A stretch of 64,000 nucleotides of DNA from a virus (Duplodnaviria; Caudoviricetes), in the IMG/VR virus record IMGVR_UViG_3300028832_000096; one strand, written 5' to 3'. Below the pieces are notes generated by a model. That model worked only from the letters and a program-made list of their open reading frames with translations. It made no database searches and was not told the origin of the DNA. Positions 7,172-59,767 of the stretch are shown in pieces. Each line of letters opens with the position of its first letter. The first letter of the stretch is position 1. Made by a program: the position numbers and the translations under genes.

Positions 7172-7801
7172 TTAATACAAGAAATCTCTAAATATTAATT
7201 GACCATTGTTATGTTCAACAAACATCTTTTCTTGCTTATATCTTGCAGGCCTAACTGAATTAATAAGCCGCATGATATCATTCCAAGTTTTACCTGACCT
7301 CAATACATTGAACTGAATTGGATATCCACTAGTGCCGTCTTTGTCATAACACTTGTATTCAATGTTGTTTTGGTCAAGTACTTCACATAATTTTTGAGCA
7401 TCTTCTGAAGCGGTAGAAGGATACGTAAACTTAAGAATTACTTCCTTGCCGTCACTACCTTTAATACCAGATATTCTAGGTTGATAGATTTCGTAACTTA
7501 TGGAATTATCACCACGTATAGAACTTTCTTTTGGAATGAAGTAGCCACTAACTTGATAAGATTTACCTGACTCTAAATTATAGGGGTTATCAGGATTAGC
7601 TACAGTGCTATCATATATTTTACTAATCAGACACTTGTTGCCATCAGCATCTTTAAACTTTACAAATATATGATAATCACCTTTGTAATAATCGCCATCA
7701 AAAGAATATTCATAAACAAGAGATTTAGTTTCCCTATCTAACTCAATTATCTTGTTATCAAGTCCGTAGAATTTCTTAGATGATTTGATGTAGCGTTTCA
7801 T
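7172..7801 (-). CDS. leader-bearing putative internal head protein
   Basis: Starts MKRYIKSS. Confidence 0.7.
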   Translation of the reverse strand: MKRYIKSSKKFYGLDNKIIELDRETKSLVYEYSFDGDYYKGDYHIFVKFKDADGNKCLISKIYDSTVANPDNPYNLESGKSYQVSGYFIPKESSIRGDNSISYEIYQPRISGIKGSDGKEVILKFTYPSTASEDAQKLCEVLDQNNIEYKCYDKDGTSGYPIQFNVLRSGKTWNDIMRLINSVRPARYKQEKMFVEHNNGQLIFRDFLY

Positions 7802-7805
7802 ATAT

Positions 7806-8264
7806 TTAATCCTTTAGCTTACTTCTTTTAATACCATTCAAGTACTTATCACTAGTATGAGTGCTCTTAGCAGCTTCCATCGTTACACCTAAGATATTTA
7901 CTTTAAATGTATGTTCTTCATCAATGTCGTAAAAAGCTGAAAATTCTAATGGAATATAAGTATCATCTACTGAAAAAGAAGATGGAAAACAACTATCCCA
8001 TTCATATCCTTTACTTTCAAAGTACCTTATTAGTTCTTTGCAATAATCTTCTGGAGTATTATTCCAATCTCCAGTTTCTTCCATCATTCTTTCTCGCTCT
8101 TCTTCAGGTATCCAGCGAATGAACATATCTATATCTGAATCTTCATTTTGCATACCATACGCATAGCTACCGGTAACAATTACTTTATCCTTAATATCAT
8201 TAAGGATTCTTACTAGAGCTGCTTTAGAGCTTAATTTTGATGATGCATTTATATATAGTTTCAT
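7806..8264 (-). CDS. Pol-beta-superfamily (MNT-like) nucleotidyltransferase with leader
   Basis: IVTGSYAYGMQNEDSDIDMFI (hGS...DxD motif); starts MKLYINASS. Confidence 0.8.
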   Translation of the reverse strand: MKLYINASSKLSSKAALVRILNDIKDKVIVTGSYAYGMQNEDSDIDMFIRWIPEEERERMMEETGDWNNTPEDYCKELIRYFESKGYEWDSCFPSSFSVDDTYIPLEFSAFYDIDEEHTFKVNILGVTMEAAKSTHTSDKYLNGIKRSKLKD

Positions 8265-8267
8265 ATA

Positions 8268-8468
8268 TCAATAAACAGAAATAATAATCCAACCAGCGTA
8301 ATTATAATCAGGCTCTATTTCCGCAACTTCTCTATAAAGCACACTATCATCACTATTATATAAATCTCGTGCTTCACCTTCAAAATACTGCTCGTTCGAT
8401 ATATTATCAAACACTGCAATACTTGTAGATAATGGAATATATTTAGTTATAAATTCCTTTAGTGACAT
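8268..8468 (-). CDS. hypothetical protein
   Basis: 66-aa ORF with AGGAG RBS. Confidence 0.65.
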   Translation of the reverse strand: MSLKEFITKYIPLSTSIAVFDNISNEQYFEGEARDLYNSDDSVLYREVAEIEPDYNYAGWIIISVY

Positions 8469-8515
8469 ATTAGTTCTCCTGACCTTTTACAAAGTAATTA
8501 AGATATTTATTCCAA

Positions 8516-8731
8516 TTATTTATGTCTCTGGAAATAACTCCACACTACTCCCCAAGCTACTTCGTCCAAAGTTTCGTCATAGAAGTTGCTCGCCATATCC
8601 CTTGTCACTTCAACCAATTCTGGTATAGCTGATTGCGGTATCGTCTTATTTAATCCAAAAGAAGCCATATGTTTAAGTGCACTAATTATCTCACTATCAC
8701 TGTATCTTGCAGCTCTAATGTATCGCTTCAT
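8516..8731 (-). CDS. leader-bearing small protein
   Basis: Starts MKRYIRAA. Confidence 0.7.
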   Translation of the reverse strand: MKRYIRAARYSDSEIISALKHMASFGLNKTIPQSAIPELVEVTRDMASNFYDETLDEVAWGVVWSYFQRHK

Positions 8732-8732
8732 A

Positions 8733-10223
8733 TTATATCTCCTGTCTATTTACAAAATAATTAATCTGCTTGTTCCAGTATCTCAACCATTCATCTAATG
8801 TGCTCTGTACATCGGAAGGCTGATTACAATATGCGTAGTCGATACAATCTATGTACATCTGTACTAACGATTTGATTGTTTCTAAACTACCTTGGAAATC
8901 ATATTTTTGTACAGGAACATAATCGCAAGGGAAATCTAACTGCGGAACTGTTCCTTGCTTCTCTACAAGCAATTCACCTAATGTGTCGATTTCTTTAATG
9001 AGTTCTTCATACATTTCTTCTGCGAGAAGATGAAGTTTCATCATGTCGTTGCCGGATGACATCCAATGAATAATGTAGAGGTTTCTATATGCTCTAATAC
9101 CTGCTTTGAATACTTCACATAAGCTTGCATTAGGGTCTACTTGGCAATTATCGCATTGTTCAATATCATAACCATTTTCATCTACATCAATACCGAAGGA
9201 CTGAGGTTCCTCAGTTAAGATATTGATAAACTCCTCTTGGTTGATGATATCATCTATATCGTCTAATGTATCTGCAGGTAAGTAATTAGATTCTAATCCT
9301 AATAACTCTACAGAACCATTGATTGTTTTCAATTTAACTGAAATGTGCTTTGCACTGTTTTCCATTGATGTTTCGCCTCCATTATCTTCACTTTCAGCAG
9401 TCTGTGTTTCAGGCTGTGTTATATCAGATAAACTTGGAGCTTCTTCGCTATCTTCTGGTTTATTGCCAGGAATTAACTGGTCTAAAGAAGTTTCGTCGTT
9501 TAGTTTATCTTGGTACATTTTACCTAATTGCTGTTGGATATCAATCAATATAGGTTTAACCAAACTAAAACCAATAAACATTGCTTTATTTTCACGAGAA
9601 ATCTTTTCTTCACGAGTAGCTTGTTTATTGGTATCTTTGTTATTTACTACGTCAATGTATTTGAAAATCCACTTACCTGCATCTTCTAAACTAATGCCGT
9701 CAATTTTACCTTGGTCAAAGTTTTCAGCTTCACAATGTAATGAATAGGTAAATTTATTAAAGACAAAATCACCCCAGGTGTCAAACTTGCTATCTTCCCA
9801 AGAGTCTATCTTCTCTAAATCAATGCCAAGCATACCTTCACCACTGTGAACAGTAATGTCACCTACATAGTGTTGAACGCTTTGGTCATACTTGATTCTT
9901 CCTGAAGTTTCTGCATCTGTAAGCATATTAATTCCAGAACGAATCTTCTTATTGTTTAACGCATTAGTTGTAAGATTCTTTATGGCGTAAGTAATATCAT
10001 TGAATGCGCTATCTACATTAGTAACAGCAAGGTCTATAGTAATTGGAGTTGTATTCTCCATATCCTGGTTAGGCTTAATTACTACATGAGTAATTGCTGT
10101 TCCGGACTTTGTTTCCACATCACCGGATTCTGTAGTATAACCATCAACAATATTTCCAAGACCTTTAAATATCTTGTCGATAATGGATTTTAATTTGTTT
10201 AAATCAAATACAGTATCTGCCAT
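8733..10223 (-). CDS. multidomain protein with C-terminal Dps/ferritin-like domain
   Basis: HWMSSGNDMMKLHLLAEEMYEELIKEIDTLGE has the H-x11-H-x14-D-x3-E spacing of the Dps ferroxidase centre. Confidence 0.8.
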   Translation of the reverse strand: MADTVFDLNKLKSIIDKIFKGLGNIVDGYTTESGDVETKSGTAITHVVIKPNQDMENTTPITIDLAVTNVDSAFNDITYAIKNLTTNALNNKKIRSGINMLTDAETSGRIKYDQSVQHYVGDITVHSGEGMLGIDLEKIDSWEDSKFDTWGDFVFNKFTYSLHCEAENFDQGKIDGISLEDAGKWIFKYIDVVNNKDTNKQATREEKISRENKAMFIGFSLVKPILIDIQQQLGKMYQDKLNDETSLDQLIPGNKPEDSEEAPSLSDITQPETQTAESEDNGGETSMENSAKHISVKLKTINGSVELLGLESNYLPADTLDDIDDIINQEEFINILTEEPQSFGIDVDENGYDIEQCDNCQVDPNASLCEVFKAGIRAYRNLYIIHWMSSGNDMMKLHLLAEEMYEELIKEIDTLGELLVEKQGTVPQLDFPCDYVPVQKYDFQGSLETIKSLVQMYIDCIDYAYCNQPSDVQSTLDEWLRYWNKQINYFVNRQEI

Positions 10224-10249
10224 AGTTATTTGTGATTCCTTTTAAAGTA

Positions 10250-10290
10250 AATGACCCTACAGGCAATTTATCTCAATCACCTGTAGGGCC
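10250..10290 (-). terminator. hairpin, possible terminator
   Basis: GGCCCTACAGG/CCTGTAGGGTC stem after the 10320 gene. Confidence 0.45.
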
Positions 10291-10319
10291 GTGTTTACAT
10301 TGTAAGTAACTTCTAGAAA

Positions 10320-10757
10320 TTACTTGCGGATTCTGCGAGAAGCAGCAACCTTACGAGCCGGCCTTGCGAGCTTCTGAGAAGCAGCAATCTTGCGACCGCG
10401 AACTCTTGTTGATTCCTCAACAACTTCCTCATCGCCCTCAGGTGTAACGGTAATCTCGTCGTCACCAACTGTGAAAGTAACTTCTGTTGTCTCGTCGTCT
10501 ACTGTGTAGTCAACAGGCTCACCTGTAACTTCAGCAAGGACCTCAGCAACATCAGCTGCCTCGAAGAGAATCTCTTCCTCAAATGCCTCTTCCTCAATAG
10601 GTGCTTCATCAACCGGAGCTTCCTCAACATCGATATCATCAACCTGGATATCTTCGATGTCTTCATCGGAACGGATGAATCTACGAGATGCACGAACGGG
10701 GCGCTTAGCAGAAGGCTCAACCTTCTTGCTTGCACGTACTGTCTTTGTGTACTTCAT
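10320..10757 (-). CDS. putative prohead core protein (basic ends, acidic core)
   Basis: Starts MKYTKTVRAS; contains VRAS twice plus IAAS and VAAS. Confidence 0.6.
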   Translation of the reverse strand: MKYTKTVRASKKVEPSAKRPVRASRRFIRSDEDIEDIQVDDIDVEEAPVDEAPIEEEAFEEEILFEAADVAEVLAEVTGEPVDYTVDDETTEVTFTVGDDEITVTPEGDEEVVEESTRVRGRKIAASQKLARPARKVAASRRIRK

Positions 10758-10773
10758 ATGAATTTCTCCTTAA

Positions 10774-11484
10774 TTAATTAAGTGCTACTAATTTGTTCTT
10801 TCTCGATTCAAGTTCTTGCCTTATTGCTTCTAACTCTGCATTAGCTTCTGTTAGTAAGGTTTCACCATCAAACGATACATTAGAACCTTCAACTCTGTAC
10901 TTACTGCGTGACCTGCCTAATGACTTTTTCATGTTAGCTTCAGACATTCTTACTAGATAGTCTACCCAAGTATCACTCTTGATTTCGCTAACATCTTGAT
11001 AATCAGGTACGTAAGTAATAGTTACTTGCGTAGGTATTGGTTCGCGATGAGATACATAAACAACTTCATTATCTACATCATGTTTCCACTGGAAATCTGT
11101 TGATAAAGTATTTCTGACCTGAGCCATTGCCATCTCGGTCATGATAGGGTCAACATTCAATGAAGAAGTTTGACCTATAGCTGAGTATGTGTTAACAGCT
11201 GCGGCGACTTGAAATACGTTTCCGCTATCTATGGAACTCATCACAAGACCAACACGAGGATATGCAGCTTGTACATTCAAGACCTTTTTGGTCTTTATTC
11301 CTAATTTGACGAGGTCAAGCCTCTTTTCAAAAGGAACTGTTATGTCTACTGGTGTCTTCATGTAGCGTTTTAACTCACGAAACGCAATGAGTACTGCTTG
11401 CTCGACTTGCATCTGTTCGGTATTGTCATTTGCTGGCGTACCTAACATGAAGCTTACTTGCTGTACAATCTCCTGCATTGTCAT
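10774..11484 (-). CDS. neck/head-tail adaptor protein (T4 gp13-like)
   Basis: C-terminal LGRSRSKY...DGETLLTEANAELEAIRQEL resembles gp13-like neck proteins. Confidence 0.6.
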   Translation of the reverse strand: MTMQEIVQQVSFMLGTPANDNTEQMQVEQAVLIAFRELKRYMKTPVDITVPFEKRLDLVKLGIKTKKVLNVQAAYPRVGLVMSSIDSGNVFQVAAAVNTYSAIGQTSSLNVDPIMTEMAMAQVRNTLSTDFQWKHDVDNEVVYVSHREPIPTQVTITYVPDYQDVSEIKSDTWVDYLVRMSEANMKKSLGRSRSKYRVEGSNVSFDGETLLTEANAELEAIRQELESRKNKLVALN

Positions 11485-11511
11485 AAGTTAACGCTACCGC
11501 CTAATTCTAGA

Positions 11512-11859
11512 TTAAGCCTGAGAAGATTCGCCGGCAAACGTGAAGCCCTGGCTCGCAAGAGCGGGAGCAATCTCACCAACATACTGAACGTCTGCGTCAG
11601 TAGCTTCCCAAGCGTAGGAACCAGCACGCATTGCAGCTCTGAGAGCAGCGATAAGACCCGGATGAGCGACCTGAGCGTTGAAGAATGCCTCAAGGCTCAT
11701 AGCGTCACCAAATCCACCGACGTTTGTATCATAGTAAGTACCGTCAAATGCCTGAGCATCAGCAGCAGCATTTGTAGGAACAAACGTAGCACAAATCTGA
11801 GCAGCAGGTGCTACTGAAGCGTCAACGGGCGCGGTGTAAGTAATGGTAATAGTTGCCAT
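11512..11859 (-). CDS. probable virion structural protein (possibly head decoration)
   Basis: Start corrected to MATITITY (AAGGAGG RBS); Ala-rich, codon usage like the MCP, own upstream AACCTT motif. Confidence 0.5.
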   Translation of the reverse strand: MATITITYTAPVDASVAPAAQICATFVPTNAAADAQAFDGTYYDTNVGGFGDAMSLEAFFNAQVAHPGLIAALRAAMRAGSYAWEATDADVQYVGEIAPALASQGFTFAGESSQA

Positions 11860-12881: not shown

Positions 12882-12886
12882 TAGTA

Positions 12887-13168
12887 TTACTCCTCAGGAA
12901 TAGCTTCTCCGCCGATGTTGCCGCTAATAGCTGAAATTTCTTGATTAATAGCATCGGAAAGTCTGTTGATGATTTCAAGTGCCTTTTGACAATCGCCATC
13001 TCTACAAAGCTTTTCGATACCTGCAAGTGCATAACCGAAATCGTCTTCAAGTGCGTCCTGCTGTTCCTCGACTACATCAAGCATATCAGGTTTCTTATTG
13101 TCTGCTGCTTGGATATCATCGGATGCCTTTACGTAATTAGAAGGATACTTTGTGAATGTCTTTTTCAT
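12887..13168 (-). CDS. leader-bearing small protein
   Basis: Starts MKKTFTKYPSNYVKAS, then IQAA. Confidence 0.75.
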   Translation of the reverse strand: MKKTFTKYPSNYVKASDDIQAADNKKPDMLDVVEEQQDALEDDFGYALAGIEKLCRDGDCQKALEIINRLSDAINQEISAISGNIGGEAIPEE

Positions 13169-13185: not shown

Positions 13186-14130
13186 TTACTTTAAGTATTT
13201 TTCAAATGAAGCTAAATATTCGTTGATGCTACTAGCGCAACCCTTTAAAGTTCTATAACCATTACCTTTTGTAAATTCAGCTAACTTAACAGGGTCAATA
13301 GAACCGTCTTCTTTTGTGCAAGCTTCAAGACCTTCGAGCATATCTTTATAATAGCTAATTGCCCAACGAAGATTTCCCATAGCCTTATCACCGCTGTAAG
13401 GAATTTTTCCTTTACGGACATCAATAGAATCAAACAATCTTGATTTGCAAGAATTGATTTTATCGTAATAATCATCAAGCGTTTTCTTAACTTCGTCAAG
13501 TCTGCCCTTAAGCCTATCAGGGAATCTTTTATATAATCTGGAATATAATGTCTCAGGATTAGGAATCGTATAACCTGACTTATCACGATTGCCAGGCTTA
13601 GACCATTCAGCGTCAGCGTGACGATTGCTTGTGCGTTCCCACTTATGCGTTTCGTTATTGTATGCTTCAGGAAAATCGGGAACCTGACCCATGTATTCAG
13701 GCTTAGAATCGCTCCAGCGCTTTTCATATCTAGGGTCAACATAACCTCTACCTTCACGAATATCCTTGCGCAAAGGAGCTGTCATATAAACTGTATCAAT
13801 GATGTGTTCCTGAATACGGGCTTTAGAAGCTGTAGCTAATGCTCTATACCTATCTCCTGCAGGAATGTGTCTTCCATAACCACCCATTACTTTGGGAACA
13901 TATACATACTGACCAGCAGGTGTCTTATAAGATTCACCCCAACGAGTTTCTTCCTTGTAAGTATCATCTAATAAATAAATCGGAACGCTATCAGGCTCCT
14001 CTACTTTTGAAAACTTAGCCTGCGACATTGCGTAACTCTGATTAAGGTAGCTGAGGGCTTCCTTACCGGCTTCGCTCTTTAACCAACTCGGCATTGACGA
14101 GTCATACGATGCTCTGATGTATCTCTTCAT
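13186..14130 (-). CDS. leader-bearing putative internal head protein
   Basis: Starts MKRYIRAS at ATG 14130 with an AAGGAG RBS. Confidence 0.75.
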   Translation of the reverse strand: MKRYIRASYDSSMPSWLKSEAGKEALSYLNQSYAMSQAKFSKVEEPDSVPIYLLDDTYKEETRWGESYKTPAGQYVYVPKVMGGYGRHIPAGDRYRALATASKARIQEHIIDTVYMTAPLRKDIREGRGYVDPRYEKRWSDSKPEYMGQVPDFPEAYNNETHKWERTSNRHADAEWSKPGNRDKSGYTIPNPETLYSRLYKRFPDRLKGRLDEVKKTLDDYYDKINSCKSRLFDSIDVRKGKIPYSGDKAMGNLRWAISYYKDMLEGLEACTKEDGSIDPVKLAEFTKGNGYRTLKGCASSINEYLASFEKYLK

Positions 14131-20560: not shown

Positions 20561-21226
20561 TTAAGGATTCTGAGAAAATTTAAAATTATCTAAATCAGCA
20601 ATAAGTGCATCTACATCTGAATTGGATTTGCTGCTAGAATTGAATTTCTCAAGAATACTTCTGTATTCCACCATCTTATTCTCAACATTTTCTGCTTCGC
20701 TGATAGCGTAGCGAACATATCTAACTAACTCATCACGGGATTTCTTATTACCGATAGCTAAATATCTTTCAGCTGCTTCAGCTAATCTCTCACCGGATGC
20801 GGTCCAGTTACTAAACTTTATAGAATTATAAGTTTTATTAGGGTCACGACCTTCAGCTCCGTATACATCGCTGCAAGCATCAACATCGAAATCTCCAGAA
20901 GAAGCTTGTTCCTCAAGCGCATCCCAGATTTCATCGCTTATAAGGTCGACTGCTTTAAGGCCTTTCTTAATTTTATAGCCGTAATCTTTTACCTCACTAT
21001 CAATGTGTTTAGTGAGATAATTTTTGCAAGCTTTTGCAAACTTTTCAGGAGTATTGTATTTCCAGTCATAATCTGCATCATTAACTTGTTCGATAACTCC
21101 CGTGATTAAATCAGCTTCATCTATGAAATCTGTCATATCTTCGACAGAGGATATAATTCCCTTTTCATCAAAATCCTTAGAAGCTTTTAAGTAACTGCTG
21201 GGATACTTTCTGTTTGTCCTCTTCAT
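20561..21226 (-). CDS. leader-bearing two-domain protein
   Basis: Start corrected to MKRTNRKYPSSYLKAS (GGAGG RBS); internal VDAC/VYGA linker. Confidence 0.75.
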   Translation of the reverse strand: MKRTNRKYPSSYLKASKDFDEKGIISSVEDMTDFIDEADLITGVIEQVNDADYDWKYNTPEKFAKACKNYLTKHIDSEVKDYGYKIKKGLKAVDLISDEIWDALEEQASSGDFDVDACSDVYGAEGRDPNKTYNSIKFSNWTASGERLAEAAERYLAIGNKKSRDELVRYVRYAISEAENVENKMVEYRSILEKFNSSSKSNSDVDALIADLDNFKFSQNP

Positions 21227-21807: not shown

Positions 21808-22179
21808 CTATCTGTAACGCTCTTCGGAGTTTAAACGCATCTGCTTTTTAGCCTCTTCAGCAGAAAGTGATGATATGTAATTATATAACTTCTTAAATTC
21901 TTCCGGAGTATATTTTTGATACTGTACATGGTATGTTTCGTATCCATACTTAGTCTTTGATTCTTCATCCGGCAGTAATAAAGTTACATTCAGATAATAA
22001 TGTATTTCTCCCGTTTTTGCATCTACGAGAATTTTTCCAGTATTCAACTCGATGATTATCCCATTATCAAGAGTTATCCTATCACCTGAATTAAATTTCT
22101 TAAATTGATTTGCTTTAGGTGCCGAACCATCTTTGTTAAATGATTTAAGCTCACTGCTTGCGTTTACATATATCTTCAT
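21808..22179 (-). CDS. leader-bearing protein
   Basis: Starts MKIYVNASS. Confidence 0.75.
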   Translation of the reverse strand: MKIYVNASSELKSFNKDGSAPKANQFKKFNSGDRITLDNGIIIELNTGKILVDAKTGEIHYYLNVTLLLPDEESKTKYGYETYHVQYQKYTPEEFKKLYNYISSLSAEEAKKQMRLNSEERYR

Positions 22180-22197: not shown

Positions 22198-22692
22198 TCA
22201 ATATTGATTAAGCTGTTCTAACACTATTTTAACAATAGCATCAACCTCTTTATTAGTTAATTCACATATACCAGAATTGCATAATGCAGTATAAGTCATC
22301 TCCTGCATTTCTTCATCAGTATAATTATTGTTTAAAAAATCTGAAACTAAGGGAGATATAACATTTTTAAATATATAAGATAATGTTTTTGTGATACAGA
22401 AGTCGGAAGATAACATATATGAAAGAATAGCATCTTGCGCAGCTGTTTTTCTATCAAATTTTCTATAAACTTCAGGACTAGCAATTACTATAGTATCGGG
22501 ATTAAAGTCACAGGGAAATACAGTGTTAGGATATAAAAATCCTTTAACGTCGTCAGAACCTCTCCACTGAATGAACCCGCGTCTAATTGCCGATAAGATA
22601 TTATAATCACCAGATAACTGAGGAAAATACCTCTTCAAACAATTAGTTAACAATGTATCACTATTAGTTGTAGCTTTTACATAAATCTTCAT
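22198..22692 (-). CDS. leader-bearing protein
   Basis: Starts MKIYVKAT. Confidence 0.75.
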   Translation of the reverse strand: MKIYVKATTNSDTLLTNCLKRYFPQLSGDYNILSAIRRGFIQWRGSDDVKGFLYPNTVFPCDFNPDTIVIASPEVYRKFDRKTAAQDAILSYMLSSDFCITKTLSYIFKNVISPLVSDFLNNNYTDEEMQEMTYTALCNSGICELTNKEVDAIVKIVLEQLNQY

Positions 22693-22952
22693 AAATCATA
22701 TTCCCCTTTATTTAACTGCTTCTTCAAGAATTCAATAGCTTTTTCAGGACTATTGAATACCTCATCAATACCCTTCTTATCATTATATACAGTAGTCTTC
22801 TTACCAAAATCTCCGCTATAACTGCCGGATTTTCTATCGTATAAACGACCAATTTCAATAAGATAGTCGCCTACTTGCATAGAACCGCCGTTAGCCTTAA
22901 TAGCTGCTTCGGTTATCATTATATCTTTGGAAGATTTTACATATATCTTCAT
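22689..22952 (-). CDS. leader-bearing protein
   Basis: Starts MKIYVKSS. Confidence 0.75.
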   Translation of the reverse strand: MKIYVKSSKDIMITEAAIKANGGSMQVGDYLIEIGRLYDRKSGSYSGDFGKKTTVYNDKKGIDEVFNSPEKAIEFLKKQLNKGEYDL

Positions 22953-23100: not shown

Positions 23101-23285
23101 GGCAATTTACCTCACACTACAATAAAAGGTTATGTACATCATAACGATTATCAATTACAAGTCCACTGCCAGGTTATCGTACCTGAATCAAATACTGATA
23201 CAAAGCCATGAGATTCCATTAGAGGTCAATTATATTTTGCTACAATGTTTAGATAATTAATCGACGTATTAATTCATTATAATCA

Positions 23286-23398: not shown

Positions 23399-24844
23399 TC
23401 AGAAAGCGCCAAGAACCTTACCAGAAACGATGGTATTCGGGTTGACGATTTTGGTTGCATACATTGTTGCAAAACCGGACTGTACAGAAGCGTTAGCAAG
23501 ACCGATATCGTCTGTCTTAATCATCGGCATATACTCACCGTAGAGAGCTGAGTTACGACGAATGTCGTTGGACTTGCAGCACATAACCCAAGTATTGACA
23601 TCGTAATAAGGGTCAACGTAGATTGTGTACTGGTCAAGTGTACCAAGCTTGTAAGGACCAACGGGCTCTTCGTTAGAAGCTGCAACGAAACCAGGAAGTC
23701 TGGAGATGAGAGAAGCAACCTTTGTACCACAGATGATTCTGTTAGGTCTAGCGAGGTTTGTTGCCTGGAAGACTGCATTAGCTGCATCATCAAGCTTGAA
23801 CTTGAAGAGGTTAAGGAAGTCAGAAGGCATTACAGCGCCGTTGAATGCAAGAGATGCATCCCAGTTGTACTGAGGAGCATATGTTGCAGCAGCTGCGAGC
23901 TGGTTGAAGCAATAGCTGTTGATTTCAGCTGTGAGCTCTGAGAAAGCAGCTTCCTTAGAAATCTCACCGATGTTTGCACCGTACTCCTGCTGAGCAGCGA
24001 ATGCAGAATAGATGGACCAATAAGAAGCGATTTCGTGTGCCTCAGCGATGAGGTTGATTTCGTCGAGCTGGAGGTAGCCCTTTGCCATCTTAGCACCGTA
24101 GTTACCATTCTGGTCAGGACCTACTGTCTCGTTGTCATACTCATAAGAAGCAGAAAGTGTTCCTGTGAGTGTGCCGATTGTACCAAGTGCGTAATCGATT
24201 GTGCCTGCTTCAGAAGAATTAGACTTCTTAATGAGCTTACCAGCACCATCATCGATATAGGTATCAGTACCATCGGAGATAGAAACTGAACCAGGGAGAA
24301 TAGGAGTATAAGCAAGTGTGCTGTTAGCAACTGCTTCGTTCCTGATTACACGACCTGTGAAGTTCGGGTCCATACCCTGACGGTTAACAAATGCAGAAGA
24401 AAGGACTGTGCCCTTAGCTGTCTCACCCTTTGTATTCTCAGCGATGAACTTGAAATAAGGGATAATCTGCTGACGAGACTTCATTGCAACAGAACCGAAA
24501 ACGTCGAGAACGAGGAGCTTCTGAACGAACATCGGGAGGAGCTCTACGAAATCGGGCTTAGCGATGATGTTGGATGTGTTTGTAGCACCCATGATAGCAG
24601 ACTGTCTACGTGTGTTGCTAACAAGCTGATTAGCGAAGATACGCTGCTCAGGTGTGAGCTGAACGGAAGCTGCTACTCTAGACATAGGACGAGCCATTCT
24701 AGAACGAGCGCCAGCGGTGATAGAAGTACCAGCATTGATGCTACGAGGAGCAGAATAGCCGATTCTAGCGGGTCTATCCATCCTCTGAGAAGCGGTAATG
24801 CTACGAGAAGGAGTAACTCTACGAGTTGTCTTTTTAATAGCCAT
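23399..24844 (-). CDS. major capsid protein, T4 gp23-like, with basic propeptide
   Basis: LDVFGSVAM...IIPYFKF, ELTAEIN, IYVDPY, YGEYMPM and GFATMYA parallel gp23 motifs; lies downstream of the protease gene. Confidence 0.9.
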   Translation of the reverse strand: MAIKKTTRRVTPSRSITASQRMDRPARIGYSAPRSINAGTSITAGARSRMARPMSRVAASVQLTPEQRIFANQLVSNTRRQSAIMGATNTSNIIAKPDFVELLPMFVQKLLVLDVFGSVAMKSRQQIIPYFKFIAENTKGETAKGTVLSSAFVNRQGMDPNFTGRVIRNEAVANSTLAYTPILPGSVSISDGTDTYIDDGAGKLIKKSNSSEAGTIDYALGTIGTLTGTLSASYEYDNETVGPDQNGNYGAKMAKGYLQLDEINLIAEAHEIASYWSIYSAFAAQQEYGANIGEISKEAAFSELTAEINSYCFNQLAAAATYAPQYNWDASLAFNGAVMPSDFLNLFKFKLDDAANAVFQATNLARPNRIICGTKVASLISRLPGFVAASNEEPVGPYKLGTLDQYTIYVDPYYDVNTWVMCCKSNDIRRNSALYGEYMPMIKTDDIGLANASVQSGFATMYATKIVNPNTIVSGKVLGAF

Positions 24845-24883: not shown

Positions 24884-26377
24884 TTAAAGTACTGCTAAAT
24901 CTCCACTATCGCCGTCTTCAGTTGCCACATCGACAGGAAATACATCTTCATCATCAAATGAAGGATTAACTCCGATGTTTCCGCTGTTTGTTGCGCCTTG
25001 GATTAAGTTTTCCAAATCGCTGACGGTAGTAGATGCAGTTACTGATAAACCAGATGCTCGAATTCCGATAGCATTTGCATAAATGTTAGCATAAGCTTGC
25101 TGATATTCATGCAACATATCTTCCATTGCGAGGATTCGCTTTTCAAGAGAACTAATCTCTTTCTTGGAAGAAGACATTTCAGCTTTGAGTTCGTTGATTT
25201 GCTCACCACGGTTTGATGCTTCTTTAGTTGCGTTGGTAGATGCTACAACAGTCTTGTTTAATCTAGAACGTAACTCTGCAATCTCTGTATCTCTTGCTTC
25301 TATGTCTGCCGAGGAACTCTCGACCTTCTGTTTATAAATAAGGTTATTTTTACGAGCAGAATTTAATTCTTGCATAATTTCAGAATTTCTTGTTTCTGCT
25401 TCGGCTAACTTAGCAGTGAGCTGCTTATTTGCAACTACTAAACTGCGCTGTTTTGTATTCAAATCTACTTTAGAGGCTACAACAGTCTCAATCTTAGATT
25501 GCATTAACTTATTCTGGCTTGCAGAAATCCTCTTAATGCTCTTAATCTGTTTGTCGTAATTAGCTTGTGTCGATGCTAAAGCAGCTTTGAGCTGTTTGTT
25601 CTCAGCAACCTGCTCCATGTACATCTCTGTAACAGCCTGAAGCTTCTTGCCCATAATCTCTTCTTTATCTTCATCGGAGCATTCAGGGCATGTATCGTCT
25701 TCAACACCGATATCTTGCTTTCTTGCTTCAAGCTTTTCATACTCTTTTGAATCAGGATTAAATTGCTTTTGCATTGCTTCGATAGCTTCTACTGTAGCAA
25801 CATTATTGATATTCTTCTCAATTGCAGCACAAACTCTCTTATATTTAACCTGGTCGTCAAGATTCTTGGAAGCAGCAATCTGCTGGAACTCAGGAACTGC
25901 GTCACCATAAGCAGGGAACGCAACTAAATCGAAACCTCTGAATACAAATGTATCAGGGTCTACATTACCTTCAGCATCTACGTCACCGGCACCTCTGATG
26001 GAGATTCCCCACTCAACACCTGCGTCCATAAATGCTTTGACAATTCTACCAACAGGAGTATCGATTAAGTCGAATGTGCCCCATACCTCATCGTCATCAT
26101 GAAGTTCCATATCAGTCATTACAATACAAGCGTCCTGGAACGTCTGTGCTCCAGGGTCTTCAGGATGTCCAAGGTAGCCGATGTAATATCTATGTTCCAT
26201 CGCATCTCTATATTCATCGGAAGCAAGCAACTTCTCAAACAACTCTCTGTTAAGCTTCATTGAATTGTTGTTGAATACTGCTGCATCACAGCACTTGCCT
26301 GTGAATGTTCCAAGAATAGAAGAAGACTTCTTAGGTTCTTCTACTACAGCTGCTGTTACTTTAGCTTTGTTAGCCAT
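24884..26377 (-). CDS. prohead protease (T4 gp21-like) fused to coiled-coil scaffold
   Basis: GYLGHP, DTPVGRIVKA, GISIRGAG and FDLVAFPAY, then a long coiled coil. Confidence 0.88.
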   Translation of the reverse strand: MANKAKVTAAVVEEPKKSSSILGTFTGKCCDAAVFNNNSMKLNRELFEKLLASDEYRDAMEHRYYIGYLGHPEDPGAQTFQDACIVMTDMELHDDDEVWGTFDLIDTPVGRIVKAFMDAGVEWGISIRGAGDVDAEGNVDPDTFVFRGFDLVAFPAYGDAVPEFQQIAASKNLDDQVKYKRVCAAIEKNINNVATVEAIEAMQKQFNPDSKEYEKLEARKQDIGVEDDTCPECSDEDKEEIMGKKLQAVTEMYMEQVAENKQLKAALASTQANYDKQIKSIKRISASQNKLMQSKIETVVASKVDLNTKQRSLVVANKQLTAKLAEAETRNSEIMQELNSARKNNLIYKQKVESSSADIEARDTEIAELRSRLNKTVVASTNATKEASNRGEQINELKAEMSSSKKEISSLEKRILAMEDMLHEYQQAYANIYANAIGIRASGLSVTASTTVSDLENLIQGATNSGNIGVNPSFDDEDVFPVDVATEDGDSGDLAVL

Positions 26378-26761: not shown

Positions 26762-27571
26762 TCAAAACTCCCCATCGTCACCGTAATTAGGGTAGACGCT
26801 ACCGTCCCTAAGTTTATTGTATTCATCTAAAGTAATTTCATCTTCAGAAAGAATAAAAGCTAGTGCTTGACCATAAGCATCCTGTCCGTCAAAATCATAG
26901 CTACCTATAAATCTCTTATTCTTATACAGCATTATCTCGCAAAGAGTATCGCTAATTCTTTCTACAGAATATGCGCAATCTCCAATCTGATAATATGAAT
27001 AATTCTCTAAACTGCCTGCTACAATTTTTCTACCATTTGTTTTTGTAGAAGCATCAAGGAAGAAGTCCTCAAGGTCTTGCTGACTAGGATTCATTCCGCC
27101 CGAAGTCTTAGGGGTAACAGGTGATACCTCTGCAGGTACTTCAGGTGCTACCTCTTCAGGTTCTGTCTTACCATAATTGTAAGTGCCCTTTCTACGCTTA
27201 AGATAATCGTAGCATTCATAAACATCAGATACTGTAATATCACGAACTATATGACCACCCATGTAGTCAACTTCGTCCTGATTATCTCTCTTCCAAACGT
27301 CTTTGCCCTTGCCCCAATCTTCAGCCCAAATCTTGACAACTTGCTTTGCTTTATCAGCAAACCAATTTCTAACCCATTCTTCAGACTTGCCATTGAAACC
27401 ACTTCTCCAAGAAGTATCGTCAACTTGTAATTCGTTGTTCTTGTTAACATCTGCGTAGCTCCAGTACTTACTCATACCGTTGCTATTTTCCCAGATACCA
27501 TCGGATAACTGACCAAGGACGCTATCAATAACTTCTGCTCGAACGTCATTGCCTAAAGGAATTGTAATCAT
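26762..27571 (-). CDS. two-domain hypothetical protein
   Basis: SVLGQLSDGIWENS N-domain; P/E-rich linker with LDAS and IVAG. Confidence 0.75.
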   Translation of the reverse strand: MITIPLGNDVRAEVIDSVLGQLSDGIWENSNGMSKYWSYADVNKNNELQVDDTSWRSGFNGKSEEWVRNWFADKAKQVVKIWAEDWGKGKDVWKRDNQDEVDYMGGHIVRDITVSDVYECYDYLKRRKGTYNYGKTEPEEVAPEVPAEVSPVTPKTSGGMNPSQQDLEDFFLDASTKTNGRKIVAGSLENYSYYQIGDCAYSVERISDTLCEIMLYKNKRFIGSYDFDGQDAYGQALAFILSEDEITLDEYNKLRDGSVYPNYGDDGEF

Positions 27572-27619
27572 ATATAGTATCTCCTAATATAATAAATGTT
27601 ACCTATAAATAAGGTGTTA

Positions 27620-28465
27620 TTAGCTTCTATCAAAAATTTCAGGATGGTCTGCAAGCATTTTCTCTAAATCAATTATGTTGATTCCATCCATGTATTCGTC
27701 TAAATCAAAATTAGTTATGTCGTATACATCAACATAGTCCCAATCATATCCGCCCTTAGGTGTATGTGCAAAACCTTTAAATCTAGGATATTTATTGTAT
27801 CTGGATTCATAAACTAAGTATATAGTATCAACTGTTTCAGTAAATCCGTTACTAAATTCTACTTCGGTATCTGCCTGGATATAAGTATCTTCATCAATGT
27901 CTTCGTTGTTGTGAAATGCTTCAAGGACTTTATCACATCTACTACCTGTAGATGCTTCTATGTTTGTAGCACCTTCAACAGCTCCTCCACAACAATCTAT
28001 GTACTGCTTAGAGATGTCCTCAAGTAAAGTAGGAACGTATTTCTGAAGGTCACTCGGTCTCTTAATTTTCCTGAAATCTATTGTAGTGTATGATGTAGAT
28101 TCCATATCTCCTGCGATATCAAAATCAACTTCGAGTTTGTTTCCATCGATATAGCATCTTAAATTAACAATTTCATCAGGCTGTAAGTCAAATGTTTCAC
28201 GAATCTTTTCTTCTAACGGAATTTCAATAAACTCAATTTCGTCATCTCTTGTAAAGAACTGGTCATCATCGTATCCAAACATGCCCTCGTCAGCAGTTAT
28301 CTTTGTAGATGATTCAATGCCGTCAATCTTTCTGTAATTCTGTTGCCTTACTGCATTCTTTGCGAATTCAATAGCTTCCTCAATCTCTTCTTGCGGAATA
28401 CTAGATATCGTATCAGAATTCAAAAGTAAAACGTCTAAGATGCCAACTACTTTTTCAGGTGTCAT
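27620..28465 (-). CDS. multidomain acidic protein (possible polyprotein)
   Basis: Linkers IESSTKITAD and VEGATNIEAS. Confidence 0.7.
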   Translation of the reverse strand: MTPEKVVGILDVLLLNSDTISSIPQEEIEEAIEFAKNAVRQQNYRKIDGIESSTKITADEGMFGYDDDQFFTRDDEIEFIEIPLEEKIRETFDLQPDEIVNLRCYIDGNKLEVDFDIAGDMESTSYTTIDFRKIKRPSDLQKYVPTLLEDISKQYIDCCGGAVEGATNIEASTGSRCDKVLEAFHNNEDIDEDTYIQADTEVEFSNGFTETVDTIYLVYESRYNKYPRFKGFAHTPKGGYDWDYVDVYDITNFDLDEYMDGINIIDLEKMLADHPEIFDRS

Positions 28466-30175: not shown

Positions 30176-30484
30176 TCACCATAAAGGTCTTCCAGGATAC
30201 TTTTCCCTGTATTCTTCCCAACCTTCACGCCACTTATTATATGCTTCGTCTGGTGATTTATAGATACGGCTCGGTTTAATCATTCCTACCTCATTATCAT
30301 AATCTTCTAACGAAACGAGAACTCTGCCATCCTTAAACCCGACTACTGTCCCCCAACTAGAACCGTTTTCTAGGTCGCCTTCACAATATACATAATCGCC
30401 AATTTTCCATTTGAAAGATAATGCAGTATCTTCCGAGCTTGCCCTTATATAACCCTGAGGATATTTAGTAAATGTTCTCTTCAT
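30176..30484 (-). CDS. leader-bearing small protein (SH3/KOW-like)
   Basis: MKRTFTKYPQGYIRAS, then WKIGDYV...WGTVVG. Confidence 0.75.
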   Translation of the reverse strand: MKRTFTKYPQGYIRASSEDTALSFKWKIGDYVYCEGDLENGSSWGTVVGFKDGRVLVSLEDYDNEVGMIKPSRIYKSPDEAYNKWREGWEEYREKYPGRPLW

Positions 30485-30498: not shown

Positions 30499-30810
30499 TT
30501 ACCTGTATCTACTGCGCACAAAATAAGATATGCCTTGTGTAGTTTCGGGTACATAATATTCATCAAACTGAAACTGTGACATGTGTGCAAACTGAACAAC
30601 TATCTTTTCAGGGTTGTAACCAAGAACTCTCGCTAAGTCTTCGCCGATTTCGCGAGCTTCGTCTTTAGAGTCTGCTTCTACATACACATTATATAAAGGA
30701 ATCAAATCACTTATCATCCTGTAGAAACTAATATGCCACACATTCGCTTCTTTATTTTGATAATCAGATGCTAATATTGATGAAGGATACTTTGTAAATG
30801 TTCTTTTCAT
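30499..30810 (-). CDS. leader-bearing small protein
   Basis: Starts MKRTFTKYPSSILAS. Confidence 0.75.
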   Translation of the reverse strand: MKRTFTKYPSSILASDYQNKEANVWHISFYRMISDLIPLYNVYVEADSKDEAREIGEDLARVLGYNPEKIVVQFAHMSQFQFDEYYVPETTQGISYFVRSRYR

Positions 30811-30815: not shown

Positions 30816-31031
30816 TTACCTCATTCTACTAAGTATTTCATCATGTAAAATTTCTTTAGCTTGTTCGTCGTTACTTCCTATGGCAATAAGAAGAACATAT
30901 TGGTCTAACAATTCTCTATTGCTTTTAGATTTAGCAGCCTCTTTACGAGATAATCTAGTGAATTGTTCTTGTTCTCCGATATCATATGAAGCAGATATAT
31001 TGCTTGGATACTTTGTAAATTTTCTTTTCAT
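30816..31031 (-). CDS. leader-bearing small protein
   Basis: Start corrected to MKRKFTKYPSNISAS (AAGGAG RBS). Confidence 0.75.
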   Translation of the reverse strand: MKRKFTKYPSNISASYDIGEQEQFTRLSRKEAAKSKSNRELLDQYVLLIAIGSNDEQAKEILHDEILSRMR

Positions 31032-41302: not shown

Positions 41303-41521
41303 TTAATCGACAATCTCAGAACCATAGCCATCTACGACATCTTCCCAAGCTGTCGAACCATTCCATTCGACTTTAGAATACCGATGTGTTGTATTATGAG
41401 GATTTCCATCCTTATCATATTCCATAAGTATAAAATAATCACCTTCCTCTGAAAGCTCTATATGGCCTCCATCTTTAAGTGTCGCCTTGTAAGTTTTACT
41501 TGCTTTTATGTATCTCTTCAT
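41303..41521 (-). CDS. leader-bearing small protein
   Basis: Starts MKRYIKAS. Confidence 0.75.
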   Translation of the reverse strand: MKRYIKASKTYKATLKDGGHIELSEEGDYFILMEYDKDGNPHNTTHRYSKVEWNGSTAWEDVVDGYGSEIVD

Positions 41522-41549: not shown

Positions 41550-41957
41550 TCAAGTGCTTAACATATTATAAAGTTCTTCTGTTTCATACCTGTCATGAAT
41601 TAAATAACCGTCGTGTTTATCGCCGTCACCCATCGGACCTACAATTGCGTCATTTGGAAATTCATCTCTTACGAAATCTTCATCAACAGGGTCATAGCAA
41701 GGAGCATAGATAGGATTAGCCCAGATATGCTTTACAAATGTTGTAGGAAGATAAACAGGGTCGCCTAAACCATATACAACTACTTCGCCATCAAATGTAT
41801 CATCTTCAACTATATAGTCTTCATAGTTGCGAGCCTTCCAGTCGATACTCCTCCAAAGCTCCTTTTCTTCTTCAGTCCATTTACCTTTGAACTCAGGTTC
41901 CCAAGTATATGAAGCTTTTACATAACTCTTAGGATATACTCTGTTTGTCTTTTTCAT
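41550..41957 (-). CDS. leader-bearing protein
   Basis: Start corrected to MKKTNRVYPKSYVKAS (AAGGAG RBS). Confidence 0.75.
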   Translation of the reverse strand: MKKTNRVYPKSYVKASYTWEPEFKGKWTEEEKELWRSIDWKARNYEDYIVEDDTFDGEVVVYGLGDPVYLPTTFVKHIWANPIYAPCYDPVDEDFVRDEFPNDAIVGPMGDGDKHDGYLIHDRYETEELYNMLST

Positions 41958-57600: not shown

Positions 57601-58114
57601 TTTTAGGGTCAAACATTCCGTTAATTAACTTAGTTCCAGCTTTTTGAATCTTATCAGTTAAAGCTTTACCTAATTTAGAATTAGCGAACTGTTTGCCTAA
57701 TTCCTTTCCCATTTCGTGAGAAAGGTCTTTCAACTCAAAACCAAATTCCTTAGAGAATTCAGATAAAGCACCATTTACGGATTTTTTGAAATCTCCACCT
57801 GCAAATACGTCTTTAAATCCGTCTTTGAGTCCGGTCTCGAAATCATCGAAGGCGTTACCGGTTCGTCTGTAGTCTTGGGAGGCTCTTGCTCTCGCATTTG
57901 GGCCATACGCCATCTCATTTTGTCTATCGCGAAAGGTAGACTGAGAGACGTTTTTAGGATTGAGTTGCCTTTCAGCTTTGAGGGCATCTTGGACACCTTG
58001 CGCAACAGCGTTACGCATATCGGTATATGATGTTTTACCGAGTACATCCGCTAATGCATCTCTATTGCTAGAATATTGCTGTTGATTGTTCTGTCCGTTT
58101 GTGTTGTCTGCCAT
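54638..58114 (-). CDS. tape measure protein
   Basis: 1158 aa, Ala/Gly-rich and helical, with a hydrophobic segment; follows the chaperone pair. Confidence 0.82.
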   Translation of the reverse strand: MADNTNGQNNQQQYSSNRDALADVLGKTSYTDMRNAVAQGVQDALKAERQLNPKNVSQSTFRDRQNEMAYGPNARARASQDYRRTGNAFDDFETGLKDGFKDVFAGGDFKKSVNGALSEFSKEFGFELKDLSHEMGKELGKQFANSKLGKALTDKIQKAGTKLINGMFDPKNADQKAARDALNKVWGKFIGKAGEGASAASSAMSNAGASSAAGAAGKAGATAAAGSMSGAGSALSGAISALSKAVPLLLVLIVVLKAVSPLISGIAAKISAFGKAFTREEDTRKQRLKNAQERMQKDLEYLAREPFEILKKAAEDWQNTWDANLAKVSLTQGYTKENTYAYYSGVAERLNQEGYGSSIAATSVINNLSSVLESGLSGKVAEEFAYQATKLSALIPTENFVQYASTYSELAAQIIAQGGSQEEALAYANSQLELFASNLLYSSRTLTGGFTTGLKDASSLFANAVEIAQSAKTNNAADISGTLTAVSAVVGEIAPDLANGLVQNVVNAAIGGNSDTIVALRSLAGVNAGNTAFLQALAKDPKGIFVSLFSNLANLQNMSPDNYMEVAEGLSSVFGVDMKAFARVDFNTLANAIQEMSVNNLSLAENMALLQSGEATTTAEQLKLQEINNIITEQGLAYVIDSEAGRAIQQHMWDEQIANELKENEYAVSLQGAALQFLEGIRGAVANVINLLNPIGWIAQGVSKLEATQAESAGKTANLADILERGAVGSNAAAFRNLTSQNAGNLNLVKPLIEMMGGKNNVQYSTSGFASGFTKFGQIAGYITPVGLMQAAADYVGQGDNLTTGAGWNAAWDRLGGSGNYGTAKNLGANLTKAVSKYAGFTGVGKSALSVLNSSQAKVLATAVRASSAATASANADADTVRRVQAWLDSAPEAAKSMTADAWVKTAKKFGISDVNSALSTAGLSMESARSYFDANQGKEGALKEQARKEDEEKFWNQNRKFWDYENGASGIYQTAVWNPFIAEFAKAFGVGGTFDTHFNLAHEALAKIQANQEFISSQIGDTSHTTLINELVKLNTNFHTTFMEDGSKYVTCMQAWYEYIERVGKYKDSVATAEAWGTVSRAEGTKQTEALLALANVMTEFTAEQLAEMDPQMQANALLGKIVIILEAMMQLQNTKAGGLSLIDTMSALGLGVTKQG

Positions 58115-58116
58115 GG

Positions 58117-58443
58117 CTACTTACTTCGTCTTGCTGCAGCTTTATCAAGCTCCTGTTGTCTTTCTTTTAGCTCTTTTTCAAAAGCAGCTACGTACTTTTC
58201 TCTTACAAATATAGGTTGTTGCATAACCCATTCTGCACTTACTGCGCCTTCTGAAGCTCTTGATATGAATAATGTTTCATCGATAATGCGTTCATATCTA
58301 TCTTGACGCATATCGTGAAATGTTTTTAGTTCTCCATTAACTTTTACTAGCTCCCGTAGCGGGTCCACTTGACTTCTCGGTACGTCTATCATCCTTCCAG
58401 GCCCTGAGATTTCCCAAGGTCGGGCGAAAGAACCTATCGTCAA
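58117..58443 (-). CDS. tail assembly chaperone second ORF (gp51-like); start uncertain
   Basis: EWVMQQPIFVREKYV...ELKERQQE; overlaps the upstream gene in the +1 frame. Confidence 0.6.
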   Translation of the reverse strand: MTIGSFARPWEISGPGRMIDVPRSQVDPLRELVKVNGELKTFHDMRQDRYERIIDETLFISRASEGAVSAEWVMQQPIFVREKYVAAFEKELKERQQELDKAAARRSK

Positions 58444-59158
58444 CCAACGCGATAAATGCTGCTTCTCCGCTTCCGCATTTAGGGCAAACTGCTGAACCTC
58501 CTGCTCTGAGACCGTAATCTGTAAGGTCCTTAACTACTGATTTAAGGATTTTGAAATCTGCATCACATAAGTTATTCTGCAACTTAAACTTAGTATCTGC
58601 AGGTGTAAGACCTGTTTCTCCCTTAATGGACTTAACCATATAGCACATTCTTGCTAAATCGGTATTTCTTTCACCACTAGGTAATACAAATAACTTATCG
58701 CTATCTGCATTGATAATCTCTTGAATTGTAGGGAGCTTTAAAACGATATCGCCATCAAAGTTGATAAATTCTTCTTTAGATACTTTGATGTTATTAGTAA
58801 AATTCGGAGGAAGTGTTTTTACTTCTACCGAACGTAAATTTACTTGATATTCACCTCTTGAAACTGCTCCGCACTTAGAACAGAAGATTGCATTTGTGGT
58901 GTGATAAGGGCCGTAGTTTAAAATTCTAAGAGCTCTACAAATCCACTGAAAATCGATTTCAAGAAGTTGTCTGAAAGGAATCTGTTCCTCAATTGCTTTA
59001 GGAAAAATAACATCGAGCATTGTAGCTTGAAAATCTTCACTACCTACATAATCTAATTCAGACGCTGTAGGAATGCTCTTCAATGTGAGGACGTCGGGGA
59101 TACCTGTATCCGCATACAGTCCTTTGCCTAAAAGTTCAATCTTTTCTGAAATAGCCAT
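58337..59158 (-). CDS. tail/baseplate hub assembly chaperone (gp26-like)
   Basis: LLEIDFQWICRALRILNYG, CSKCG, LKLPT and CPKCG...RFFRP. Confidence 0.72.
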   Translation of the reverse strand: MAISEKIELLGKGLYADTGIPDVLTLKSIPTASELDYVGSEDFQATMLDVIFPKAIEEQIPFRQLLEIDFQWICRALRILNYGPYHTTNAIFCSKCGAVSRGEYQVNLRSVEVKTLPPNFTNNIKVSKEEFINFDGDIVLKLPTIQEIINADSDKLFVLPSGERNTDLARMCYMVKSIKGETGLTPADTKFKLQNNLCDADFKILKSVVKDLTDYGLRAGGSAVCPKCGSGEAAFIALVDDRFFRPTLGNLRAWKDDRRTEKSSGPATGASKS

Positions 59159-59338
59159 TTGTAATCCTCCAAAAGTTTTTGATGATTGGTATTTCGTTGT
59201 ATTAAATTATCCTAGCGCCTACCATAAAAGTCTTAATGGTAAGTACTCCTTACTTATCTATAAAAGGTTATACACACAGAAACGGAAGGCTACTTCTAAC
59301 CTTCCGCTCCTGCATGTCTGTATGGCAATCTGACAAAG

Positions 59339-59767
59339 TTAACTATTTTCTAAATCGGCAAGTTGTGCCTTTGCTTCGTTGTCATTTCTCCAATCTGCGT
59401 AGCTACCTACATAGTAGAAACCGTCTGCTACTTCACAAGCCTGATTATCATGACACATGCCCTCTAAGGCACCAAGAATTGTATACATGTCAAAATCTTG
59501 TTCTTCAGATTCTTGTCCGAAATGAAGTGTATATGTATCAGAGAATCTATCAGGATAAGTGCTTTTGAGTAATTCTGCAACACTAGCTAAACTGAAAGGC
59601 TTTTCTTCATCTGCAATTCGCTTTGAGATAATCCAGCCAGTACATAATTCCTGAATAGCATCTCCGCAAAGTTCTTTCTCATCCTTGCCGAAGTACCACT
59701 GACGTGCATCGGATAACTTTGATGCTTTGACATAATTTGAAGGATATTTTGTATAAGTTCTTTTCAT
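59339..59767 (-). CDS. leader-bearing protein
   Basis: Starts MKRTYTKYPSNYVKAS; has its own upstream AACCTT motif and a downstream hairpin. Confidence 0.78.
   Translation of the reverse strand: MKRTYTKYPSNYVKASKLSDARQWYFGKDEKELCGDAIQELCTGWIISKRIADEEKPFSLASVAELLKSTYPDRFSDTYTLHFGQESEEQDFDMYTILGALEGMCHDNQACEVADGFYYVGSYADWRNDNEAKAQLADLENS

Follow-up and report, generated by a model that had tools for sequence, protein, structure and literature searches.

How do sixteen proteins with unrelated bodies come to begin with the same few residues? The question is raised by a 64,000-nucleotide stretch of viral DNA (IMG/VR record IMGVR_UViG_3300028832_000096, referred to below, at its full length, as the window), which is a piece of a large tailed phage. 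Its minus-strand structural region contains a T4 gp23-type capsid gene (23399-24844), a prohead protease gene (24884-26377), a head-tail adaptor and baseplate genes, and 16 genes of the window open with a leader peptide that ends in [IV]-x-[AS]|[SA], the bar standing for the predicted cut, P1 for the residue before it and P1' for the residue after it. The reading favoured here, with a probability of about 70%, is that the leader is a capsid-targeting propeptide in the manner of phage T4, which would load proteins into the head and then be removed. It draws on sequence and on analogy with the internal proteins of T4 (IPI, IPII, IPIII), whose capsid targeting sequence is removed by the prohead protease gp21 (PMC9026906; 10.1101/2021.01.19.427310).

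A peptide conserved at the protein level

All 16 leaders listed in a first-pass annotation of the window were recovered at their start coordinates, every one on the minus strand. The pattern M[KR]-x(1-13)-[IVL]-x-[AS]-[SAT] matched 16 of 100 hand-curated genes, precisely the 16 listed, and randomisation of residues 3-20 in 5000 trials gave a mean of 2.7 matches and a maximum of 10, a test that is post-hoc because the pattern was derived from the leaders themselves. The first-pass annotation had placed no leader in the plus-strand island or in the block at 59818-62668, and 0 of the 37 genes there match; it had also called the sequences behind the leader unrelated, and no pair among the 16 bodies aligns at E<0.05.

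A shared start could, however, be a translation-initiation or nucleotide module, either an A-rich start or a copied cassette of promoter, ribosome-binding site and start, with no peptide function. As many as 32 of the 100 window genes start M-[KR], and recombination could pass start regions to new genes. Against this, the most common base reached 0.74 at the first, 0.83 at the second and 0.58 at the third codon position in 96 distinct short leaders from the window and its relatives, a comparison in which the leader residues were fixed by the selection pattern and codon choice was left free. Within the same set Ser at residue 8 was encoded by TCN (36 times) as well as AGY (13 times), and Arg at residue 3 by AGR (31 times) as well as CGN (14 times). 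The 20 bases upstream of the leader genes share a ribosome-binding site as their sole common element, and the motif recurs inside head proteins. Such synonymous variation places the signal at the protein level. Conservation at the nucleotide level alone, named beforehand as the finding that would speak against a tag, is not the case, third codon positions being the least conserved. The codon analysis thus largely refutes a nucleotide module, for which only a very slim chance is left, and the Ala/Ser-type leader of the window is a peptide conserved at the protein level.

The predicted cut motif in head-assembly proteins

The end of the leader recurs where a T4-like phage would process its head. 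The strict form [IV]-x-A-[SA] occurs 1.91 times per 100 amino acids (aa) in the capsid propeptide, the protease-scaffold and the protein starting at 10757 taken together. Elsewhere its density per 100 aa is 0.09 for tail and baseplate proteins, 0.26 for the mature capsid protein, 0.06 for the bodies behind the leaders and 0 for the island genes, so that head-assembly segments exceed tail proteins about 20-fold. The major capsid protein (23399..24844, minus strand; Pfam Gp23) has a basic propeptide of about 86 aa with four motif copies, which ends IMG|ATN. Across the family this end reads [IV]-x-[AG]|ATN, and in the outgroup locus L051 it is LLE|ATN. The outgroup capsid gene (L051, 9917-11762) is itself split into two open reading frames (ORFs) about 570 bases apart, possibly by an intron or an insertion.

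The 10757 protein had been listed as a leader variant on swappable cargo, a placement that did not hold. This acidic 145-aa protein (10320..10757, minus strand) carries four motif copies and is conserved family-wide, with homologs in about 40 related loci, each having a basic N-terminus that ends [IV]-x-A. It is probably a prohead-core protein rather than cargo. No link by sequence was found between it and an acidic protein at a similar position in the cultured Streptococcus phage vB_SagM-GXN1 (PQ819873; GXN1 below).

The protease that would cut these sites is encoded in the same region, as expected for a leader system of the T4 kind. It is a prohead protease fused to a coiled-coil scaffold in a protein of 497 aa (24884..26377, minus strand; Pfam Peptidase_S77, phrog_207), scoring 27.7 bits against PF03420 (cut-off 27). 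Searched by sequence against solved structures, the protease alignment gave no match. The structural model (mean predicted local distance difference test, pLDDT, 83.6) found its best match in T4 gp21 (5JBL; Z 14.6, root-mean-square deviation 2.3, 135 aligned), followed by herpesvirus assemblins at Z 7-8.8, and the residues H71/S126/D150 align with H85/S140/D168 of T4 gp21, so the catalytic triad appears to be kept. A release site, IAA|S, is predicted at residues 167-170, directly after the domain; it is 90% or more conserved in an alignment of 32 sequences. About eight further sites are predicted in the scaffold part, and VTA|A lies at residue 7. Taken together, the motif is very probably the cut site of the phage's own head-maturation protease. 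A complex prediction that paired the protease domain with residues 1-32 of the 59767 protein returned 'no answer' (score 0.01) and was not used as evidence.

Two leaderless proteins encoded just upstream of the protease operon (26762..28465, minus strand) contain a few motif-like linker sites, in numbers no higher than chance; that they are processed polyproteins is a weak possibility.

Glutamate and alanine types of prohead protease

A profile search recovered 130 full-length protease-scaffolds, of which 75 had Ala-rich and 51 Glu-rich scaffolds, with four unclassified. The residue at the domain-end site was Ala in 75/75 of the former and Glu in 51/51 of the latter. Enrichment at P1 of the scaffold sites followed the same division: in the Ala group Ala was enriched 5.2-fold, Gly 1.7-fold and Ser 1.6-fold, with no enrichment of Glu, and in the Glu group Glu was enriched 3.7-fold. 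The window differs from T4, with its L/I-x-Glu sites, in that the scaffold and capsid propeptide sites are [IV]-x-Ala by sequence. A quick, unrooted tree built from the protease domain only sets the Ala group apart across a long branch, which has a support of 100 in the Shimodaira-Hasegawa-like approximate likelihood ratio test. The residues R52, R55, Y57, E82, R88 and S141 of T4 gp21 are common to the Glu group and all six are lost in the Ala group. Because T4 gp21 shares them with the Glu group, Glu at P1 is likely to be the ancestral state, and the six, for which the candidate specificity positions in the window's enzyme are 37, 40, 42, 68, 75 and 127, would be candidates for an acid-binding pocket, on the strength of a single evolutionary event.

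The leaders follow the type of the protease. They are of the Ala/Ser type here, as are the head-protein sites, and both are of the Glu type in GXN1, an agreement between predicted sites that favours the non-Glu cleavage specificity claimed at first pass. It also bears on the idea that a modifying enzyme, such as a radical-SAM enzyme, recognises the leader as its tag. A motif that tracks the protease argues against such a tag, and no radical-SAM cysteine motif was found in the long ORFs of the window or of the family's examined loci, to which the scan was confined; this explanation is given very little credence.

Leaders across relatives

The lineage comprises about 80 protease clusters at 50% identity and consists of gut-type phages; its nearest cultured relatives are far off, with capsid protein identities of 30% or less. 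The strict short-leader pattern was present in 17 of 27 IMG/VR records, with 1 to 23 matches each, always on a single strand per record and with one control match overall. Several complete family members have no strict leader and instead show looser forms, so the load varies widely. The strict Ala-type short leader was not found in the Glu-type genomes G027, HSE3 and GXN1. GXN1 has six same-strand genes that start M-[RK]-L-[VI]-[RK]-L-x-E, a pattern with 0 control matches, and within it small unannotated genes with the shared Glu-ending leader surround the capsid gene (L053, 12394-25024).

With the other positions unconstrained, Lys occupies P6 in 86% of leaders, Tyr P4 in 75% and Lys or Arg P2 in 73%, and none of these is preferred at scaffold sites. 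Lys2 and Tyr4 are thus conserved and leader-specific, and the same two residues occur in T4 IPII and IPIII; Tyr4 is here also P4, and it could serve cleavage.

Leader density and arrangement differ between loci. In one 15-kb stretch of G005 (L054, 3394-14648) the leader is on 14 of 19 genes, among which are five or six paralogous leader proteins of 208-293 aa with a common repeat unit; one of them, scanned alone, had no Pfam match. In P0284, L069 (13554) and L001 (15516) the N-terminus has two tandem copies of the motif, as though a newer leader had been prefixed to an older one.

Leader genes, portability and cargo

The short leaders of the window, all on the minus strand as are the long ones, head a 209-aa protein (7172..7801, P1 Ser), a minimal Pol-beta nucleotidyltransferase (7806..8264; PF01909) and proteins of 71 aa (8516..8731), 314 aa (13186..14130), 123 aa (21808..22179), 164 aa (22198..22692, P1' Thr) and 87 aa (22689..22952, P1 Ser), with a 72-aa protein (41303..41521) among the baseplate genes. 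Long leaders are found on a 93-aa acidic helical protein (12887..13168) and on proteins of 221 aa (20561..21226), 102 aa (30176..30484), 103 aa (30499..30810), 71 aa (30816..31031), 135 aa (41550..41957, again among baseplate genes) and 142 aa (59339..59767). The 31031 start has a ribosome-binding site, and a second in-frame ATG lies upstream of it at 31058. The first-pass annotation had taken long and short leaders as two classes. Both forms do exist, but no functional separation was seen and they appear interchangeable, because the domain of the 21226 protein is common to a short-leader protein of L054 and a homolog of the 59767 protein in L071, 61% identical, starts with a short-type leader.

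Portability is best documented for the 8264 nucleotidyltransferase. The leader is present in 12 of its 107 homologs, all of them 70% or more identical to the query, and absent from 83 single-domain homologs; where grafted, it stops just ahead of the domain's first helix. Two leaderless homologs were found in accessory regions of other mobile elements and one in a member of the same phage family, and some homologs are fused to the polyvalent-protein domain LPD15. Flags for 'E' on leaderless homologs were considered as Glu-type leaders and rejected, as they come from the first helix of the domain. The leader thus appears, from the sequences compared, to have been grafted onto an existing nucleotidyltransferase in this lineage, and the portable tag proposed earlier is borne out by this graft together with the exchange of long and short leaders on the same body.

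The proposal of a large, swappable cargo set also stands, with about 120 leader proteins in the window and its relatives, mostly singletons; the loose leader pattern caught some false leaders, which were dropped before the family scans, and the largest cluster is partly chained via repeats. A recognisable domain was found in just one of the 15 non-core leader proteins of the window. Over the whole set Pfam matches were few, being to LRV, BspA-type and HEAT repeats, a zinc ribbon, a ferritin-like domain and the nucleotidyltransferase. In L075 leader variants occur on a GNAT protein and on a protein of two domains, one of them a papain-fold deamidase domain, which has an IKA|S site in an internal linker. 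A leaderless ArdA anti-restriction gene lies near the leader-bearing nucleotidyltransferase, GNAT and papain-fold deamidase genes of that locus (6130-11867). A paralogous set of repeat proteins with leaders in L003 (4931-16511) is probably the source of the LRV and HEAT matches. No transmembrane-like stretch was seen in 96 leader proteins. The domain classes (nucleotidyltransferase, GNAT, peptidase) would fit an effector role, and for the anti-defence function proposed at first pass they are hints at the level of domains.

The leader of the 14130 protein is retained in nearly all full-length homologs, and its residues 1-6 are of low confidence in the protein model; neither PDB nor BFVD gave a fold match to this 314-aa cargo, and the Atlas gave no match. 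The 13168 protein is kept in part of the family, where its propeptides vary but end in the same motif.

Weighing the capsid-targeting reading

Several observations weigh against a capsid-targeting propeptide. The strict short leader is missing from six of the 16 near-complete genomes searched, the Glu-type outgroup being one of the six, and HSE3 and G027 have no Glu-type leader set by the GXN1 pattern, which leaves one cultured Glu-type relative showing leaders. The Glu-to-Ala switch is a single evolutionary event, so the many protease sequences are not independent. P1 is Ser in half of the leaders, yet Ser is just 1.6-fold enriched at scaffold sites, and some leaders may therefore be cut poorly or never. 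Among 96 bodies 88% are net negative, whereas the T4 internal proteins are basic (PMC9026906). Lastly, some of the cargo carries BspA-type leucine-rich repeats, which are known from surface adhesins.

The acidic bodies would suit an account in which the leader is a real protease site but is insufficient as an address, the proteins entering by way of their own bodies or by non-specific entrapment, and many of them being structural proteins or core fillers rather than ejected effectors. In its C-terminal half the leader is indeed a generic scaffold site, the 10757 and 13168 proteins are conserved, acidic and core-component-like, and the propeptides of phage SPN3US are long and varied (PMC5694885). 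The leader-specific residues are harder to accommodate: Lys2, Tyr4 and the basic P2 are kept in front of more than 90 unrelated bodies and are not seen at scaffold sites, and a graft onto an enzyme that is elsewhere leaderless needs a benefit from the tag itself. This account is considered unlikely.

The Ser at P1 and the repeat proteins could also be explained if the leader stayed uncleaved and served as an anchor to the capsid surface or to another hub, for decoration or display. Two leader proteins of L057 (8007-10988) have the adhesin-like BspA-type repeats, an unexpected cargo if internal, and others have LRV or HEAT repeats. The motif, however, equals the sites at the end of the protease domain and of the capsid propeptide and is of the Glu type where the protease is, and gp21-type proteases work inside the prohead (PMC9026906). 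An anchor is accordingly rated as quite improbable.

Proposed mechanism

If the leader is a capsid-targeting propeptide, the leader genes would be expressed late from the structural strand, as their position and an AACCTT motif suggest. The basic N-terminus, M-K-[RK]-Y, would bind the assembling prohead core and carry the attached protein inside, by analogy with T4. The gp21-type serine protease, re-specified from Glu to small residues, would cut after [IV]-x-[AS] and so remove 7 residues from short and 14-15 from long leaders, as the capsid propeptide is clipped and the scaffold fragmented. The mature proteins would remain in the head, and at least some may enter the host with the DNA as effectors, which is the least certain step; that many leader proteins are ejected effectors is given about an even chance, on analogy. 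New cargo would arise by grafting of the tag onto an existing domain, as indicated for the nucleotidyltransferase. A wider proposal, held tentatively and at slightly under even odds, is that one remodelling of a gp21-type protease, from Glu to Ala/Ser at P1, had capsid, scaffold and tag rewritten, and that the 7-residue tag alone loads any protein. If true, reading the first eight codons of every gene would reveal the injected arsenal of these uncultured phages.

Leader genes were reported at first pass to stand often behind an AACCTT motif, a claim that proved too strong, since only about 4-5 of the 16 have the motif directly upstream. It also precedes the leaderless genes 59158, 43861, 37086, 28465, 21637, 11859 and 4743. 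The copy at 23126..23131 (minus strand), which is followed by an AT-rich stretch, is a candidate late promoter that is not leader-specific, and similar intergenic copies lie at 59812, 59269, 37118, 31072, 21684, 14206, 11953 and 4769. As a leader-specific signal it was rejected: 15 of 108 leader genes have it within 100 nucleotides, against 4 and 1 in the controls, and it fronts leaderless structural genes too. A general late promoter of the family is plausible.

Genomic setting and host

The plus-strand inverted island (14267-20521), with its 25 small genes, is embedded in the structural region and has the opposite GC skew. The island and the 59.8-62.7 kb block, taken together, are rich in Cys (3.0 per 100 aa, as against 0.9 in the leader proteins), and several near-paralogous starts occur in the two. 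The minus strand carries three tRNA genes (Tyr, Met, Leu) at 1705-4264 and, at 32143-37086, a gene with a TTG start for a 1647-aa tail-fibre-like protein with a long array of 14-residue H-x-E-G repeats. A small gene directly upstream of the 22952 leader gene (22943-23100, minus strand) is apparently frameshifted, a 29-aa frame being followed by about 25 further residues in another frame, and may be a pseudogene or an assembly error. The leaderless 496-aa protein at 8733-10223 (minus strand) has a weak C-terminal ferritin/Dps-like match; a ferritin-like match was also found on one leader-bearing protein of a relative.

Contigs of relatives were binned with two Clostridia genomes and with one Bacteroidaceae genome, which makes the host uncertain. 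Going by the strong ribosome-binding sites, Clostridia would be a guess.

Comparison with known systems

Literature searches gave no description of this leader or of an Ala-cutting gp21-type protease, subscription journals being thinly covered, and no paper on GXN1 was found. GXN1 itself is the nearest parallel in culture, having related protease-scaffold and capsid genes in the same order and six shared leaders; its leader and scaffold sites differ in ending in Glu, and its capsid protein is 24% identical.

The ejection proteins of the SPN3US/phiKZ group (gp245/gp175) offer a second parallel, in that many head proteins are processed at a three-residue motif, the protease cleaves itself C-terminal to its domain and identical N-termini are found on the diverged gp53 and gp54 (PMC5694885). 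These phages differ in cutting after Glu (A-x-E) and in having mostly long propeptides and no short portable tag; the proteases of T4, phiKZ, 201phi2-1 and SPN3US all cut after Glu (PMC5694885). Polyvalent proteins of phages and conjugative elements have been proposed to be injected with DNA, and their Pol-beta nucleotidyltransferase, GNAT and peptidase classes overlap with those found here (PMC5512222). There the domains are joined in one large polypeptide, whereas here the proteins are small and separately tagged. The tag yields a shortlist of mostly unannotated proteins that are candidates for delivery with DNA, and a pool for anti-defence screens.

Herpesvirus assemblin (pUL26/UL80) belongs to the same fold family and is likewise a protease-scaffold fusion with a release site directly after the domain. 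In pseudorabies virus the R-site is YLQA-T and the M-site VQA-S (PMC4498786), and the phage IAA|S matches the herpesvirus hydrophobic-x-Ala|Ser release site. Unlike assemblin (Peptidase S21, Ser-His-His), the phage enzyme has a third catalytic residue that aligns with Asp168 of T4. Herpesviruses are not known to have such a cargo tag at the N-terminus. As the modelled enzyme is nearer to T4 gp21 (Z 14.6) and its nearest relatives are of the Glu type, the herpesvirus-like site is best read as convergence. An Ala/Ser-type lineage with a Glu-type sister group and six candidate residues would make the basis of prohead-protease specificity testable, and has a bearing on the way in which the same fold could give rise to the herpesvirus site.

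The closest likeness is to T4 itself, with its gp21-fold protease and same triad, its gp23-type capsid protein with a propeptide and its multi-site scaffold. The tags are alike in starting M-K-x-Y and ending in hydrophobic-x-P1 before a small residue, with divergent bodies behind; IPII and IPIII start M-K-x-Y and end I-x-E|A, and in IPI there is also a longer N-terminus, where the later site reads ITE|A. In T4 targeting depends on residues 4 and 7 of the tag and cutting on residues 8 and 10 (PMC9026906); here a shorter tag on more than 90 unrelated bodies could help to separate targeting from cutting residues. Unlike in T4, the predicted P1 is Ala or Ser (Gly in the capsid protein) rather than Glu, the short tag has 7 residues rather than 10, the bodies are mostly acidic, and a single fused gene encodes protease and scaffold. 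Tagged genes number 16 in 64 kb, and strict matches reach 23 in a genome, as against three internal proteins. Since both the Glu at P1 and the basic cargo are missing, the system is most likely a variant of the T4 capsid-targeting system with a herpesvirus-like site rather than the T4 type proper. The idea of a swappable tag plus cargo in T4-like phages is already in print (PMC9026906), and the new parts are therefore the Ala/Ser code and the scale.

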